Positions 53,747 through 60,264 of a stretch of DNA of 64,000 nt are shown here, piece by piece. Origin of the DNA: a phage; sequence record PV636258.1, one strand, 5' to 3'. Both the position numbers and the translations under genes were made by a program. Below the pieces are notes generated by a model that saw nothing but the letters and a program-made list of their open reading frames with translations, did no database searches and was not told where the DNA came from. How positions within the stretch are numbered: the first letter of the stretch is position 1; every line of letters starts with the position of its first letter.

Positions 53747-54232
53747 ATGCTCCCATTACTCAATGTTCCAAAAGAACGTATGACGCCGGATAGTGAAGGC
53801 AAGACCCATTACAACATATACAGTCGAAGCCGCACAGAACTAGGCAGATTCCTTTCCCATTTTGCATACCATCCCATGGATACTGTTGATGGTAATTTCA
53901 ACTCAATAGAAGGCTACTGGTATTGGCTAAAATATCGCCACGACGACTTGCGTAGTCTTTATGGGAACGACGCCAAGCAATTTGGACAAACCCTGGCCAA
54001 GTCACGCATCGTTGTATTGTCCCCTGATGATCCCAAATTTAAACGAGACATTATCGCAGCAACGAGTCAAAAATTGCTGACAATGCCATCCAAGTTGAGA
54101 TTCCAATTGGCCCATAGCCGTCTCCCCCTGATTCACGCTTATGAACATCAGGGGAAATACAGTTTTCAAAACTCTATGGATTTTATCATACAGCATATTA
54201 ACCGCTTCCGTCTAGAAGGATATTTGAAATGA
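53747..54232 (+). CDS. NADAR/YbiA-like domain protein
   Basis: NIYSRS...GRFLSHFAYHP...VDGNFNSIEGYWYWLKY aligns by eye to the YbiA core NFYSTS...GDFSNFAAWP...DGKTWPTSEHYFQAQKF (recalled from memory). Confidence 0.45.
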   Translation: MLPLLNVPKERMTPDSEGKTHYNIYSRSRTELGRFLSHFAYHPMDTVDGNFNSIEGYWYWLKYRHDDLRSLYGNDAKQFGQTLAKSRIVVLSPDDPKFKRDIIAATSQKLLTMPSKLRFQLAHSRLPLIHAYEHQGKYSFQNSMDFIIQHINRFRLEGYLK

Positions 54233-54807
54233 ATTTTCTAAAAACTATCTTCAACACATCATATGAACTCAGCCAGCGCGATTCTAATCGTTCTCCTGTG
54301 TTTGTATATTGCAAACTCGTGGAAGAGTCTTGTGAACTATCAGATGTGCTTTATGGAATCGCTGCATCCGAACCCCTGAACGGTGAAGTGGCGGACGTTA
54401 TCATCTCGGCTCTGGATCTATTATATGTTGTGGATTATCAACAAGTTCAACAACATGGGTCTATGACCAAAGAAGAAATCTTTGACTCCATGTTGTTTGC
54501 TTTGGCTACAGCCAATCACACAACTGATCTCAGCCAACATACGTTGGAGGATTATTGGTTCTGCAGTGGTGTTGAAACTATAGACAAATATCTTGCGATG
54601 GTTAATCATTACAAAGGCCGCATCACTCGTTTACTGAACCAACCTCAACGTTCAGAAGATAATATGGTGGACCTGGTTTCAAATCTGATACGCAATACTG
54701 CCAAATTGGCGTGTGGATATAATCAAAACCATATCAACACGATCGTTAAAGTGGAACATGCCATAGAACACAAAGTGGAAAAATGGCGCACTAAATTTGG
54801 TCTATAA
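54229..54807 (+). CDS. MazG-like all-alpha nucleoside triphosphate pyrophosphohydrolase
   Basis: KLVEESCELSDVL (EExxEL) and EVADVIISALDL motifs; ATGA start-stop overlap with upstream gene. Confidence 0.45.
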   Translation: MNFLKTIFNTSYELSQRDSNRSPVFVYCKLVEESCELSDVLYGIAASEPLNGEVADVIISALDLLYVVDYQQVQQHGSMTKEEIFDSMLFALATANHTTDLSQHTLEDYWFCSGVETIDKYLAMVNHYKGRITRLLNQPQRSEDNMVDLVSNLIRNTAKLACGYNQNHINTIVKVEHAIEHKVEKWRTKFGL

Positions 54808-54856
54808 GCCAACCCCATACATAATCTTGTGTGTTTACCATTGACGGGATAGGCCG

Positions 54857-56770
54857 ATGTCCAACAAAATTGATATTGAACGCAAATACAAAAAGCTCAC
54901 TCACATAGAGCATATCCTACTTCGCCCAGAGCGTCATCTGGGCAGTATTCGTTCGTCTGTGGGGACGGTGTGGGTGTATGACCCAACCAAAGACAAAGTC
55001 ATCTTTCGTGACAACTTTGAGTACTCCCCTGCGCTGATCAAACAGTTTGATGAAATCATCACCAACTGTGTTGACCACAGCAAGACCCCTGAGGGTAAAG
55101 GCTTGACGGAAATCACCGTCACGGTCTCTCCTATGAACGGTCAAATCATCGTTTCTGACAACGGGGGTATCCCTGTGGTCAAGCATGGCGTCACCAATGA
55201 GTGGCTCCCTGAGATGTTGTTTGGCTCGCTCTATGCGGGCAGCAACTTCAACGATGAGGACGAGGAGTACAACAACCAGAAGTCCGGCGGCCAGAACGGT
55301 GAAGGGGCTTCGCTCGTCAACGTGTTCTCAAAGTGGTTCCGCGTTGCTACCAGTGACGGCAAGAAGTCTTATACTCAGCTGTTTGAAGACAACATGAGCA
55401 AGAAGTCCAATCCGGTCATCGGCAATACACCGAAAGAGTTCGGCACCACTATTGCCTGGATCCCTGATTATGCGCGCCTGGGTGTTAAGGGGCTTGACCA
55501 GAACAACCTGCTCATGATTTACCGTCGTGCATTCGAAGTGGCGGCATGCAACCCGCGCCTGAAGGTTGTTCTCAACGGCAAGCAAATCCGCATTGATCGC
55601 TTTGGTCACTTCGTTGATTACTTCTACGCTGGCTCGGCTGTTGATGAAACGGATGATTGGTCTGTTGCTATCACTCCCTCATCTGGTGTGTTCATGCATG
55701 CGTCATACGTGAACTCAATCGCCACGCACATCGGTGGACCTCACGTTGATTATGTTGCTGACCAGATCGTGGCGGCGATACGCCCTCAGCTGGTTAAGAA
55801 GTTCAAGACCGAACTGAAGCCAGCGATGATCAAGAACCACATGTCATTGTTCATCGCCGCCGACATCAACAACCCTCGCTTTGACAGCCAGACCAAGGAG
55901 CGCATGACGACTCCTGTGAGCCAGTTTGGTACGTCCTACAAGCCCAGCGATAAACTGATTCGCAAGGCGCTTGAGTTCGTGACAGCAGGGCTGAGTAAAG
56001 AACTGGCTTCATTACGCAATGAACAAGAAGATGCCGAATTTGAAAAGGCGAAGAAGGATATCAGCAAACGGGATTATCGTGAGATTGAGAAGTATTATCC
56101 GGCGACCGCCAGAGGCGACCGCAGTGGGTGTTCTCTGCTACTGACAGAAGGTGATAGCGCATCCAACCCTATCCTGAACGCTCGTGATACCAAGAAAATT
56201 GGTTTGTTCCCGCTTCGTGGTAAGTTCATCAACTGCCTGAACGCCCCGCGCTCAAAGGTGATGGCGAACGAAGAATTCAAGAATTTATGCACCATTCACG
56301 GCGGTGCTGTGCCAGGCCAGCCGCTTGATATCAGTCGCTATCCACAGACCGTCGTGGCAACAGACGCGGATGACGACGGCATTCATATCCGTGGGTTGTT
56401 AATAACTCTGTATTGTACGTTCTGGCCTGAATACGTTCGTCAGGGTAGGCTGAAGCTCCTTCGTACTCCATACATGCGCGTGTGGTGTGGTAATATAATG
56501 CACGAATTCATGAACAATGCCGAATATGAGGAGTTCCTGAAGACACCTGACGCCAAGAAGATCACGAAGAAGAAATATCTGAAAGGTCTTGGCGGTAACA
56601 GCACTGAAGACTTCAAGCGTATTCTAAACAACCTGGATGCGTATACTACGACGGTCACGCTGGACGATGGATACAAGCAGTCACTGAAGAATGGCTTCGG
56701 TGATGAGGCTGCTGATTACCGCAAAACCTGGTTTAGCGATGTTTGCCTATTTGAAACCGAGGATGAATAA
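54857..56770 (+). CDS. DNA topoisomerase II large subunit (GyrB-like ATPase plus Toprim; T4 gp39/gp60-like)
   Basis: GHKL motifs (ITNCVDHS, DNGGIP, GGQNGEGAS) and Toprim motifs (LLTEGDSA, DADDDGIHIRGL). Confidence 0.85.
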   Translation: MSNKIDIERKYKKLTHIEHILLRPERHLGSIRSSVGTVWVYDPTKDKVIFRDNFEYSPALIKQFDEIITNCVDHSKTPEGKGLTEITVTVSPMNGQIIVSDNGGIPVVKHGVTNEWLPEMLFGSLYAGSNFNDEDEEYNNQKSGGQNGEGASLVNVFSKWFRVATSDGKKSYTQLFEDNMSKKSNPVIGNTPKEFGTTIAWIPDYARLGVKGLDQNNLLMIYRRAFEVAACNPRLKVVLNGKQIRIDRFGHFVDYFYAGSAVDETDDWSVAITPSSGVFMHASYVNSIATHIGGPHVDYVADQIVAAIRPQLVKKFKTELKPAMIKNHMSLFIAADINNPRFDSQTKERMTTPVSQFGTSYKPSDKLIRKALEFVTAGLSKELASLRNEQEDAEFEKAKKDISKRDYREIEKYYPATARGDRSGCSLLLTEGDSASNPILNARDTKKIGLFPLRGKFINCLNAPRSKVMANEEFKNLCTIHGGAVPGQPLDISRYPQTVVATDADDDGIHIRGLLITLYCTFWPEYVRQGRLKLLRTPYMRVWCGNIMHEFMNNAEYEEFLKTPDAKKITKKKYLKGLGGNSTEDFKRILNNLDAYTTTVTLDDGYKQSLKNGFGDEAADYRKTWFSDVCLFETEDE

Positions 56771-56771
56771 G

Positions 56772-59155: not shown

Positions 59156-59180
59156 ATAAATTGGCGGTATAATTGCCGCC
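59152..59180 (+). promoter_or_regulatory. Variant TTGAATAAA box plus hairpin with TATAATT loop
   Basis: TTGAATAAA 59152-59160; GGCGG-TATAATT-GCCGCC hairpin 59163-59180; gene start at 59205. Confidence 0.4.
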
Positions 59181-59204
59181 TAACCCCATAATGAGACAAA
59201 TAAC

Positions 59205-59429
59205 ATGGCAAATGAAATTGGTGATATTGCCCAGTTCCGTGCTATTTCACGCCGCCTGAAATCGTATGGACTCGTTATCGAAGAAATAGATGAAGACGTT
59301 CAGGGTGTATTGGAAGGGATGTTTGGGAGTACCGTTGGAACGGAATTATTTGAACTTTTAAAGATGGCAGCTGATAACCAATTTGTTGAATATATTTCTG
59401 AACACGCTATTGATGGTCTGAATAAATGA
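59205..59429 (+). CDS. Small hypothetical protein (74 aa)
   Basis: ATG-initiated ORF. Confidence 0.4.
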   Translation: MANEIGDIAQFRAISRRLKSYGLVIEEIDEDVQGVLEGMFGSTVGTELFELLKMAADNQFVEYISEHAIDGLNK

Positions 59430-59662
59430 ACGAGTTATATGAATTTGAACGCGTGTATGAGTCCGCTTCAGTTTCAGGATACATGAAACGATTATATCAA
59501 GAAATCTGTGTTCGTTTGATGATGCGAGGAATATCTGTCAATTGTGTTATGGCACAGACAGACAGTTTTATTATGACACTCACTGACCATCGCCAGAATA
59601 TGTGTATCATCCAGGTTAGCTGTGTCAACAACGAAATTATACAATGGAGACGTTACGCATGA
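59426..59662 (+). CDS. Small hypothetical protein (78 aa)
   Basis: ATGA overlap with flanking genes. Confidence 0.4.
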   Translation: MNELYEFERVYESASVSGYMKRLYQEICVRLMMRGISVNCVMAQTDSFIMTLTDHRQNMCIIQVSCVNNEIIQWRRYA

Positions 59663-60264
59663 CCACATATGTTATCACAAACGGCGATTTACTGAAAGCC
59701 GCTACGAGTTTTAATCTCATCAATGCTTTCGCTCATGGCGCAAATTGTTGGTCTGTGATGGGCGCAGGTATCGCCAACCATGTTCGATTGGATTTCCCAG
59801 AAATTTACCGCGCCGACCAATTAGATGAACGTGGTCCGGAACAACGTTTGGGGAACATGTCCTATGCGTTTGATCATGACACTGGTGTCTGGGGATTCAA
59901 TTTGTATACTCAGTTCTACCCTGGTCCTAACGCACGCATGCCTTCCATTATCAGTTCAGTTCAGATTATGTTTGAACAAGTTCACGATATCATTGAGGCA
60001 AAAACTGACGAAACAGTCTATGTCGGTTTACCCGCCATCGGCTGTGGTATCGGTGGTTTGAAACTGTTTCATGTAGTGAGCCAGATTAATAAAATCGCGG
60101 ATACTATCTTCGAAGATACCAGGCGTCGTGTAGTACCCGTCTTTTATATCCGACAGGGTGACGGGTTTGAACAAGATTTACAAGAACTTTCCCAGATGGT
60201 GGACTACGGAATCTCTGTCGTCGCTAGTGAAGAAGATATCATCGAAGAGGAAGGTATTGGATGA
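59659..60264 (+). CDS. Macro-domain protein (ADP-ribose binding/hydrolase fold)
   Basis: INAFAHGANCWSVMGAGIANHV (NAAN...GGGV-like) and LPAIGCGIGG motifs; start at ATG 59659 with GGAGA SD. Confidence 0.55.
   Translation: MTTYVITNGDLLKAATSFNLINAFAHGANCWSVMGAGIANHVRLDFPEIYRADQLDERGPEQRLGNMSYAFDHDTGVWGFNLYTQFYPGPNARMPSIISSVQIMFEQVHDIIEAKTDETVYVGLPAIGCGIGGLKLFHVVSQINKIADTIFEDTRRRVVPVFYIRQGDGFEQDLQELSQMVDYGISVVASEEDIIEEEGIG

Follow-up and report, generated by a model that had tools for sequence, protein, structure and literature searches.

The window analysed here, a stretch of 64,000 nucleotides (sequence record PV636258.1), derives from Salmonella phage Chennai (Kuttervirus, Ackermannviridae). 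Three of its genes are considered:

30591 to 31040, plus strand: candidate ADP-ribosyltransferase of the ART-PolyVal type (Pfam PF18760, E = 2.2e-10)
53747 to 54232, plus strand: ORF1, with ATG at 53747 and stop codon ending at 54232; 161 amino acids, pI 9.6, gp30.3/AdfN-like phage NADAR fold of the His type
59659 to 60264, plus strand: ORF2, with ATG at 59659 and stop codon ending at 60264; 201 amino acids, Tk.4/AdfM-like macrodomain

For ORF1 and ORF2 we computed fold, homology, active-site residue conservation, gene integrity and distribution. Both ORFs lie at the coordinates given in the original prediction. A GGAG sequence lies 8 nt upstream of the ORF2 start codon, and ORF1 is translationally coupled to a gene for a MazG-like pyrophosphatase, a neighbourhood that showed no conservation outside Ackermannviridae. 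Both genes are kept throughout the Ackermannviridae relatives recovered in our searches. The corresponding CDSs in RefSeq relatives are annotated as hypothetical proteins, which is also the label of the two genes in most genome records. Members of the ORF1 family were found in 564 records and those of the ORF2 family in 2722 (tblastn for the latter), and both families are far more widespread than the ART-PolyVal gene. The latter was limited to 227 phage records, all of them, as far as listed, Ackermannviridae or Kuttervirus-identical.

The original prediction had read ORF1 as NADAR-like and ORF2 as a macrodomain, and had counted on Pfam searches for recovering the two domains. Taken literally these searches failed on both window proteins, whereas deeper profile and fold methods did recover the domains. 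ORF1 gave zero matches to Pfam, NCBIfam and PADLOC models. It had no hit to PF08719 (NADAR), a profile matched by only one of 43 ORF1 homologues (E = 6e-4), nor to PF08010 (Phage_30_3), to which eight of the 43 homologues gave weak matches (best E = 0.0026). PF08010 is carried by all 120 T4 gp30.3 relatives listed and by none of the ORF1 relatives. ORF1, in contrast to gp30.3, is too divergent to be detected by either profile. Sequence and profile searches of the PDB with ORF1 returned noise only. With hhalign, ORF1 scored 90% against YbiA and 86% against T4 gp30.3 alone, and comparison of the ORF1 family profile with that of the gp30.3/AdfN family gave 96.8% (E = 2.9e-10) in a full-length alignment of 135 columns. 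The alpha+beta NADAR fold, with five core helices and small beta hairpins at the flanks, is present in ORF1, for which the top structural match was E. coli YbiA (2B3W). The NADAR likeness of ORF1 is real, though standard profile libraries miss it. The protein is only remotely related to AdfN, which counts against an anti-DarT role.

The predicted active site of ORF1 is made up of the elements below; the NADAR-like reading of this gene is correct:

53909 to 53932, plus strand: codons for E55-K62 in the invariant SxEGYWYW motif (hhalign alignments, codon check)
53975 to 53989, plus strand: codons for K77-Q81, AKxxG(R) motif (motif likeness, residue description in PMC11543638)
54134 to 54136, plus strand: codon for H130, invariant in all 43 sequences and aligned with T4 H123

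E55 and K62 align with E36/K43 of T4 AdfN, E48/K55 of YbiA and E43/K50 of the P. nicotianae NADAR, and they show the spacing of Glu and Lys seven residues apart that is seen in NADARs (P. nicotianae E43/K50; E. coli C7 E88/K95; for the roles of these residues see PMC11543638 and PMC11257639). E55 is the predicted catalytic Glu and K62 the predicted phosphate-binding Lys; in AdfN, function is abolished by E36A and by K43A. None of the 43 sequences departs from A76, K77 or G80, and the K77-Q81 segment is predicted to be proximal to the pyrophosphate and would correspond to K75/G78/R79 of the P. nicotianae NADAR. Phage NADARs of the gp30.3 type have a last-strand His in place of the Glu of YbiA or the Asp of BC4488 (PMC11543638, PMC11125620), and ORF1 has this His as H130. 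E55, K62 and H130 align with E36, K43 and H123 of AdfN. In contrast, the last-strand residue is Glu in E. coli YbiA, which acts on riboflavin intermediates, and Asp in the DarG1 NADAR antitoxin of G. lovleyi (8BAT), whose N-terminal extension ORF1 also lacks.

At 50% identity the wider ORF1 family falls into about 1,900 clusters, with hardly any members in cellular genomes, and it has invariant motifs of its own (NxYS, EGYWYW and HxY). K/R62 is restricted to the Ackermannviridae clade; most family members have Arg at position 81 and lack the Lys at 62, an observation that counts against an anti-DarT role. Relatives of ORF1 carry this type of domain in fusion with Macro, canonical NADAR, DUF4326 or SLOG (SLOG/YpsA) domains, and ORF1-type genes also occur in gene clusters together with Macro and NADAR genes, which places them in an ADP-ribose-processing context. 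The finding of ORF1-type and canonical NADAR domains within one polypeptide (P0179) and within one locus (L007) suggests a specificity unlike that of canonical NADARs. ORF1 is predicted, by homology, to be an ADP-ribosylglycohydrolase acting on ADP-ribosylated bases.

The features of ORF2 are as follows:

59659 to 60150, plus strand: macrodomain core, residues 1-164 (AlphaFold pLDDT 96.5; Foldseek; PDB profile; Tk.4 homology)
59743 to 59745, plus strand: codon for N29 in the invariant HGANC motif (alignments to M. tuberculosis DarG)
59899 to 59913, plus strand: codons for N81-Q85, NLYTQ motif, identical in all 43 sequences (aligned with DarG and TARG1)
60151 to 60261, plus strand: C-terminal extension, residues 165-201 (alignment; composition; AlphaFold pLDDT 94-97)

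ORF2 scored below the gathering score of Pfam Macro (PF01661; E = 0.22, 11.9 bits, cut-off 22), a profile matched by 37 of its 43 homologues at E below 0.01. Searched against the PDB, the ORF2 family profile matched the M. tuberculosis DarG macrodomain (1.5e-13) and TARG1 (about 1e-12), and Foldseek with the ORF2 model returned TARG1 as top match (1.5e-8), the matches to TARG1, Poa1p and DarG spanning E = 1e-8 to 1e-6. Homology to T4 Tk.4 is clear, both by BLASTP (38% identity, E = 1e-18) and by hhalign (99.9%, E = 7.7e-35). Only the macrodomain part of the PADLOC DarG model matched ORF2 (3.4e-10), and of the 338 positions of the NCBIfam DarG model only 3-135 did so (36.6 bits, cut-off 250); Tk.4 scores alike against both models. 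ORF2 also matches phrog_335, a PHROG annotated 'phosphatase', and T4 Tk.4 is itself annotated in this way. The Gly-rich ADP-ribose-binding loops and conserved Asn of macrodomains are found in ORF2 as HGAN29C, MGAGIA and IGCGIGG. ORF2 is thus a macrodomain, as the original prediction had proposed, and falls into the TARG1/DarG class.

N29 is the equivalent of the active-site Asn N22 of DarG2 and N23 of PhiKZ AdfM (roles from PMC13309987). Its retention, and the fact that the best solved relatives of ORF2 are DarG macrodomains and TARG1, speak for an anti-DarT role. Where DarG (Taq K80) and TARG1 (K84) have their catalytic Lys, ORF2 has Q85, and all its family relatives have Gln there too. The replacement of this essential Lys speaks against such a role, as does the acidic character of ORF2 (pI 4.5), unusual for an enzyme acting on DNA. 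The Asp of human TARG1 (4J5R; D125) is Gly in ORF2, and DarG likewise lacks it. T4 Tk.4 shares with ORF2 the motifs HG(A/C)NC, MGxGxA, NLYTQ(F)xPGPN and IGxGIG, including the Gln, whereas Tk.4, like the majority of other homologues, lacks the conserved acidic extension of about 37 residues (11 D/E and 1 K/R), which the model folds with confidence; tblastn alignments to distant homologues stop near residue 133-164. Compared with DarG2 of T. aquaticus and M. tuberculosis (5M3E/5M3I), ORF2 differs by this Gln and by the lack of the C-terminal DarT-binding domain. PhiKZ gp104 AdfM, a chimallivirus DarG2-like protein that counters DarTG2, resembles ORF2 in being a stand-alone phage macrodomain with the same active-site Asn. 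It has, however, kept K78, a Lys of the DarG type, and enters a phage nucleus by import, whereas ORF2 is a member of the Gln-type Tk.4 clade. ORF2 is predicted from its homologues to be an ADP-ribose hydrolase whose substrate is DNA with ADP-ribose linked to thymine.

In T4, AdfN (gp30.3, anti-DarT factor NADAR) neutralises DarTG1 and AdfM (Tk.4, anti-DarT factor Macrodomain) neutralises DarTG2, as determined experimentally (PMC11257639; bioRxiv 10.1101/2025.11.20.689424), and the two protect the phage from this bacterial defence by removing ADP-ribose from DNA. For AdfM there is only genetic evidence, from a preprint in which deletion of tk.4/adfM sensitised T4 to DarTG2 (10.1101/2025.11.20.689424). 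Every phage NADAR assayed to date, from T4, Bas32 and Bas60, removes guanine-linked ADP-ribose or counters DarTG1. DarTG1 has been characterised in E. coli C7, and members of Kuttervirus infect E. coli O157:H7. Given the action of the T4 proteins, ORF1 and ORF2 are best explained as DNA de-ADP-ribosylases resembling orphan antitoxins. On balance it seems probable, going by homology, that they are stand-alone, DarTG-antitoxin-like ADP-ribosylglycohydrolases used by the phage as counter-defence, and among the roles suggested in the original prediction, the countering of DarT-type host toxins is now the best supported. For both proteins we infer an enzymatic activity, a DNA-base substrate, a base specificity and DarTG as target. 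In a DarTG host, DarT would ADP-ribosylate single-stranded phage DNA, at guanine in the case of DarT1 and at thymine in the case of DarT2, and thereby block replication. ORF1 would bind the ADP-ribose via E55, K62, K77 and H130 and cut the N-glycosidic bond to guanine, while ORF2 would take ADP-ribose off thymine. Both would erase the modification rather than inhibit the toxin, because neither has a DarT-binding domain or, unlike the DarG antitoxins, an adjacent toxin gene.

Several other explanations were weighed. ORF1 and ORF2 might degrade soluble ADP-ribose-derived molecules instead of DNA adducts, candidates being NAD+-derived immune messengers (Thoeris-type cyclic or conjugated ADP-ribose) and by-products of RNA repair such as ADP-ribose-1''-phosphate. 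Iyer et al. (2022) argued for soluble ADP-ribose derivatives as the substrates of most Macro and NADAR domains in phages, and the fusions of ORF1-type domains to Macro, SLOG/YpsA and DUF4326 fit their view. Consistent with this are also the presence of Poa1p, an ADP-ribose-1''-phosphate phosphatase, among the structural neighbours of ORF2, the 'phosphatase' label of its PHROG and the lack of the DarG/TARG1 Lys. However, the only experiments on the closest characterised homologues, AdfN and AdfM, indicate DarT-modified DNA, and the strongly basic ORF1 fits a nucleic-acid substrate; we consider soluble substrates unlikely. That neither protein erases DNA ADP-ribose, with ORF2 being a non-catalytic ADP-ribose reader or sequestering macrodomain and ORF1 a YbiA-like N-glycosidase with nucleotide or cofactor intermediates as substrates (for instance sanitising pools with the coupled MazG-like pyrophosphatase), appears quite improbable. 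Tk.4 has the same Gln as ORF2 and yet is needed against DarTG2, and the missing TARG1 Asp is absent from DarG too. Moreover, ORF1 has the phage-type His instead of the YbiA-type Glu and aligns better with the AdfN family, and its pairing with MazG is not conserved beyond Ackermannviridae.

The gene at 30591, designated PARP-like in the original prediction, matched Pfam ART-PolyVal and is a transferase candidate: PF18760 gave 41.9 bits against a cut-off of 31.2, which passes the gathering score, and DUF3990 gave 1.1e-7. The further proposal that it forms a writer with two erasers was not supported. ORF1 and ORF2 could in principle reverse or limit ADP-ribosylation of host or phage targets by this transferase; in favour of this, Kuttervirus genomes retain the three genes together with one another, and T4-like phages have NADAR genes near ART genes such as alt. 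Yet the transferase gene lies 23-29 kb from the other two in different gene clusters, no DarT or ART gene adjoins ORF1 or ORF2, and most phages with either family lack the ART gene. The phenotypes of the T4 homologues are, furthermore, explained by host DarT toxins and not by phage ARTs, and such a circuit is very improbable.

A combined reading, which we regard as rather unlikely, is that the ORF1 family is a virus-restricted NADAR branch with its own substrate, and that the tail of ORF2 provides a second mode of neutralising DarT2. ORF1 may act on a different ADP-ribosylated base, cytosine or adenine, or on adducts in hypermodified DNA; T4 has hydroxymethylcytosine in its DNA, whereas the phage carrying ORF1 has hypermodified thymidine. 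A distinct substrate would explain why ORF1-type domains co-occur with canonical NADAR and Macro domains in polypeptides and gene clusters. By analogy with the C-terminal domain of DarG2, the acidic tail might neutralise DarT2 by mimicking DNA.

The assignment of ORF1 and ORF2 as counter-defence proteins does not describe a new kind of system, but is a useful annotation upgrade of two hypothetical genes, which are distant relatives of T4 AdfN and AdfM and probably encode anti-DarT factors.

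ORF1 and ORF2, the two candidate erasers of ADP-ribosylation, are conserved genes that most records call hypothetical; in RefSeq relatives both coding sequences carry the label "hypothetical protein" with identical boundaries. Over the 7.2 kb around them, the sequence matches Salmonella phage Chennai (MN953776.1) at 100% identity and many further Kuttervirus genomes (family Ackermannviridae) at about 99%. The positions that matter are as follows, in window coordinates except for the T4 locus.

53747 (ATG) to 54232 (end of stop), plus strand: ORF1, NADAR-like, 161 aa
53930-53932, plus strand: K62 of ORF1
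53987-53989, plus strand: Q81 of ORF1
59659 (ATG) to 60264 (end of stop), plus strand: ORF2, macrodomain, 201 aa, with GGAG 8 nt 5' of the start
L005:6923-7390, minus strand: T4 tk.4, with the NLYTQ motif

Scans of Pfam, NCBIfam and PADLOC with ORF1 gave no match, so the Pfam NADAR hit expected in the original prediction did not appear, and it was deeper methods that recovered the fold. PHROGs places the protein in a family of "unknown function", and its PDB matches by sequence and HMM profile (an endolysin, E 1.1, and Rrp17, E 0.28) were dismissed as chance-level. The AlphaFold model, built from an alignment with 42 homologues, has a mean pLDDT of 96.1 and the same three structural neighbours, at the same Z level, as published for T4 AdfN (gp30.3, anti-DarT factor NADAR; PMC11257639); many of its Foldseek matches among predicted viral structures bear the name NADAR. 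With hhalign, the ORF1 family profile matched YbiA at 90% (E 1.6e-6) and T4 gp30.3 alone at 86%, and comparison with a gp30.3 family profile of 40 sequences gave 96.8% (E 2.9e-10) over 135 columns, which is nearly the entire protein. The NADAR-like assignment is thus borne out and, as judged from profile comparison and the predicted model, ORF1 is a NADAR-fold protein overlooked by the standard libraries.

The NADAR catalytic set includes a Glu (E43 in the P. nicotianae enzyme) and a Lys seven residues on (K50) (PMC11543638, PMC11125620), and the T4 AdfN mutants E36A and K43A are inactive. All three hhalign alignments put E55 and K62 of ORF1 on this Glu and this Lys (codons checked), and H130 aligns with T4 H123. 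E55, K77 and H130 are invariant in all 43 family members, K77 lying in an AKxxG motif whose counterpart is P. nicotianae K75/G78. Position 62 is Lys or Arg in only seven of the 43 sequences, a Kuttervirus-like clade within Ackermannviridae, and the same seven have a non-basic residue instead of Arg at position 81; among the remaining 36, 30 combine Ser or Gly at 62 with Arg or Lys at 81. Since the pyrophosphate is contacted by both K50 and R79 in the P. nicotianae enzyme, this pattern looks like the relocation (swap) of one phosphate ligand in a single lineage. As it represents a single event, the K62/R81 covariation was set aside as statistical evidence and is kept as an observation.

With regard to distribution, searching 1.84 billion representative proteins with the profile yielded 1,934 ORF1-family proteins at E ≤ 0.001, 506 of which reach E ≤ 1e-30, and tblastn located the family in 564 phage records, including Ackermannviridae, jumbo phages and Vibrio phages. 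In 185,579 prokaryotic genomes, one per species, there were no more than five loci, each on a MAG contig, and the family is therefore essentially viral; none of these five has a DarT neighbour that would indicate a toxin-antitoxin context. A large NADAR subfamily missed by the Pfam models is thereby brought to light. Its longer members are fused to Macro, canonical Pfam NADAR, DUF4326, SLOG/YpsA or metallophosphatase domains. Six multidomain proteins bearing the ORF1-type domain (P0179, P0241, P0224, P0143, P0269 and P0145) are up to 1,415 aa long. One MAG contig (L007:4010-7592) carries an ORF1-like gene followed, in order, by DUF488, zinc ribbon, Macro, DUF6011 and canonical NADAR genes. These multidomain proteins and the MAG cluster are presumably viral, polyvalent ADP-ribose-processing arrays, the context described by Iyer et al. 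Because the ORF1-type domain co-occurs with canonical NADARs in both fusions and cluster, it is probably not redundant with them.

ORF2 itself matched Pfam Macro below threshold (E 0.22), and in this respect the expected profile hit failed, but 37 of its 43 homologues match the family. The ORF2 family profile also recovered the M. tuberculosis DarG macrodomain (1.5e-13) and TARG1 (about 1e-12), and Foldseek matched the ORF2 model (pLDDT 96.5) to TARG1, Poa1p and DarG structures, which together confirm a macro domain. PADLOC and NCBIfam DarG models matched at about 1e-9, over the macrodomain part only and far under the NCBIfam cut-off. The decisive comparison was with T4 Tk.4 (38% identity, E 1e-18; hhalign 99.9%, E 7.7e-35), which shares the motifs HG(A/C)NC, MGxGxA, NLYTQxxPGPN and IGxGIG with ORF2, and on this basis ORF2 is a macrodomain of the Tk.4/AdfM type. 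Homologues occur in 2,722 phage records. Deletion of tk.4 renders T4 sensitive to DarTG2, hence the name AdfM, anti-DarT factor Macrodomain (preprint, 10.1101/2025.11.20.689424), and a DarG2-like AdfM of PhiKZ strips DarT2-made ADP-ribose off DNA (PMC13309987).

N22 and K80 are named as active-site residues of DarG2 (PMC13309987); the Asn is kept in ORF2 (N29), whereas the Lys is replaced by Gln (Q85). Gln occupies this position in T4 Tk.4 and in all 43 ORF2 family members, and the NLYTQ motif (N81-Q85 of ORF2, window 59899-59913) is invariant across the Tk.4/AdfM-like family. Likewise, the essential catalytic K84 of TARG1 is replaced by Gln in this family, and D125 by Gly. The catalytic mechanism of DarG or TARG1 can therefore not simply be transferred to this clade, and the lack of the DarG catalytic Lys throughout, including in the genetically validated T4 AdfM, poses a mechanistic question. 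In Ackermannviridae, ORF2 has an additional stretch of about 37 residues at the C-terminus, conserved and acidic (11 D/E, 1 K/R; window 60151-60261), with the pattern F-x-x-[DE]-[LIM]...[IF]-x-V-V-x-[ST]-E-E-[DE]-I-I; it has a confident fold in the model, is absent from T4 Tk.4 and the other distant homologues checked, and may serve as a module for interaction or DNA mimicry.

The gene order runs from a histone-like protein through ORF1, a MazG-like pyrophosphatase, two topoisomerase II subunits, a small membrane protein, DUF6527, an Arn.3-like protein, two small ORFs and ORF2 to a hypothetical protein and a DexA-like exonuclease. The MazG-like gene (window 54229-54807) and ORF1 share 4 nt at start and stop (ATGA), an arrangement suggestive of translational coupling. 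Pseudomonas phage NoPa also has a MazG-like gene two genes away from its ORF1 homologue, which is not so in the other phages checked, and no conserved partner gene was found around ORF1 homologues in three unrelated phages. Between the topoisomerase genes and ORF2 are two small conserved genes of unknown function, DUF6527 (window 58427-58738, E 1e-13) and, directly before ORF2, DUF7234 (window 59426-59662, E 1e-40). The ORF2 start overlaps the DUF7234 stop, and its own stop likewise overlaps the following gene's start; a start at 59644 was dismissed as it lacks a Shine-Dalgarno sequence, whereas the annotated one has GGAG upstream. One paper on Vi01-like phages lists, at the position of ORF2, a "putative ADP-ribose binding protein" flanked by DexA and the small topoisomerase II subunit. 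Predicted promoters and terminators at 52600-61400 were not above expectation (21 against 16±4 and 7 against 8 in shuffled sequence), and no inference on expression timing is therefore drawn.

The gene at 30591-31040 (plus strand), proposed in the original prediction as the transferase, matches Pfam ART-PolyVal above the gathering score (E 2.2e-10) as well as DUF3990, and is therefore a reasonable candidate "writer"; a PDB sequence search with it found nothing useful. Its distance is 23 kb to ORF1 and 29 kb to ORF2, and the stretch from the histone-like to the DexA-like gene contains no ADP-ribosyltransferase or DarT gene. It occurs in only 227 phage records, all Ackermannviridae or Kuttervirus-identical among the matches listed, and is absent from most phages with either eraser family. 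Neither distance nor distribution thus speaks for the proposed functional module of one writer and two erasers, and a writer-eraser circuit with the phage's own transferase is a less likely explanation of ORF1 and ORF2. Directly upstream of this gene, a 400-aa protein (window 29349-30551) has a sub-threshold match to PALP (PLP-dependent enzyme) and a full-length match to phrog_3650, and may have a part in the pathway by which these phages hypermodify thymidine. The record OR844942.1 ("Enterococcus phage Efm 3-10", 111 kb) encodes proteins with 100% identity to ORF1 and to the transferase candidate, and MN871475.1 ("Pseudomonas phage Pa-sanjiao") one with 100% identity to the transferase candidate; both are apparently Kuttervirus sequences that were mislabelled or contaminated.

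Of the relatives characterised so far, those closest to ORF1 and ORF2 are counter-defence enzymes of phages that act as mimics of DarG antitoxins: DarT1-made ADP-ribose is removed from guanine by AdfN (PMC11257639; PMC11125620), and AdfM counters DarT2, which targets thymine. Whereas fold, homology and conserved residues are seen in the present data, activity, substrate and base specificity are inferred from these relatives, and we propose that ORF1 and ORF2 would clear ADP-ribose off replicating phage DNA in DarTG1 and DarTG2 hosts. As a toxin-binding domain is missing from both, their action would be enzymatic rather than by binding the toxins; a role that is non-catalytic or unrelated to ADP-ribose appears less likely. 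The main rival is an action on soluble ADP-ribose derivatives, in line with the prediction of Iyer et al. for the majority of phage Macro and NADAR domains; it is compatible with the domain fusions, the similarity to Poa1p and the missing Lys. Erasure from DNA is the reading to which the DarG-mimicking relatives point, and adaptation of the two enzymes to hypermodified DNA would be a plausible refinement, since T4 AdfN acts best on T-even (hydroxymethylated) DNA and 5-NeOmdU replaces about 40% of thymidines in Kuttervirus DNA.

Biocontrol and detection of Salmonella and E. coli O157 make wide use of Ackermannviridae (Kuttervirus) phages. Neither anti-defence genes nor ADP-ribosylation come up in a recent review of the family, and none of the papers listed in our literature search ties NADAR, Adf factors or DarTG to Ackermannviridae or Kuttervirus; the specific AdfN/AdfM assignment therefore appears unreported, the kind of system being already known. 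The assignment predicts that Kuttervirus phages would resist both DarTG types, opens direct knockout and rescue experiments, and extends the "orphan antitoxin" idea of counter-defence to a phage family whose DNA carries hypermodified thymidine.
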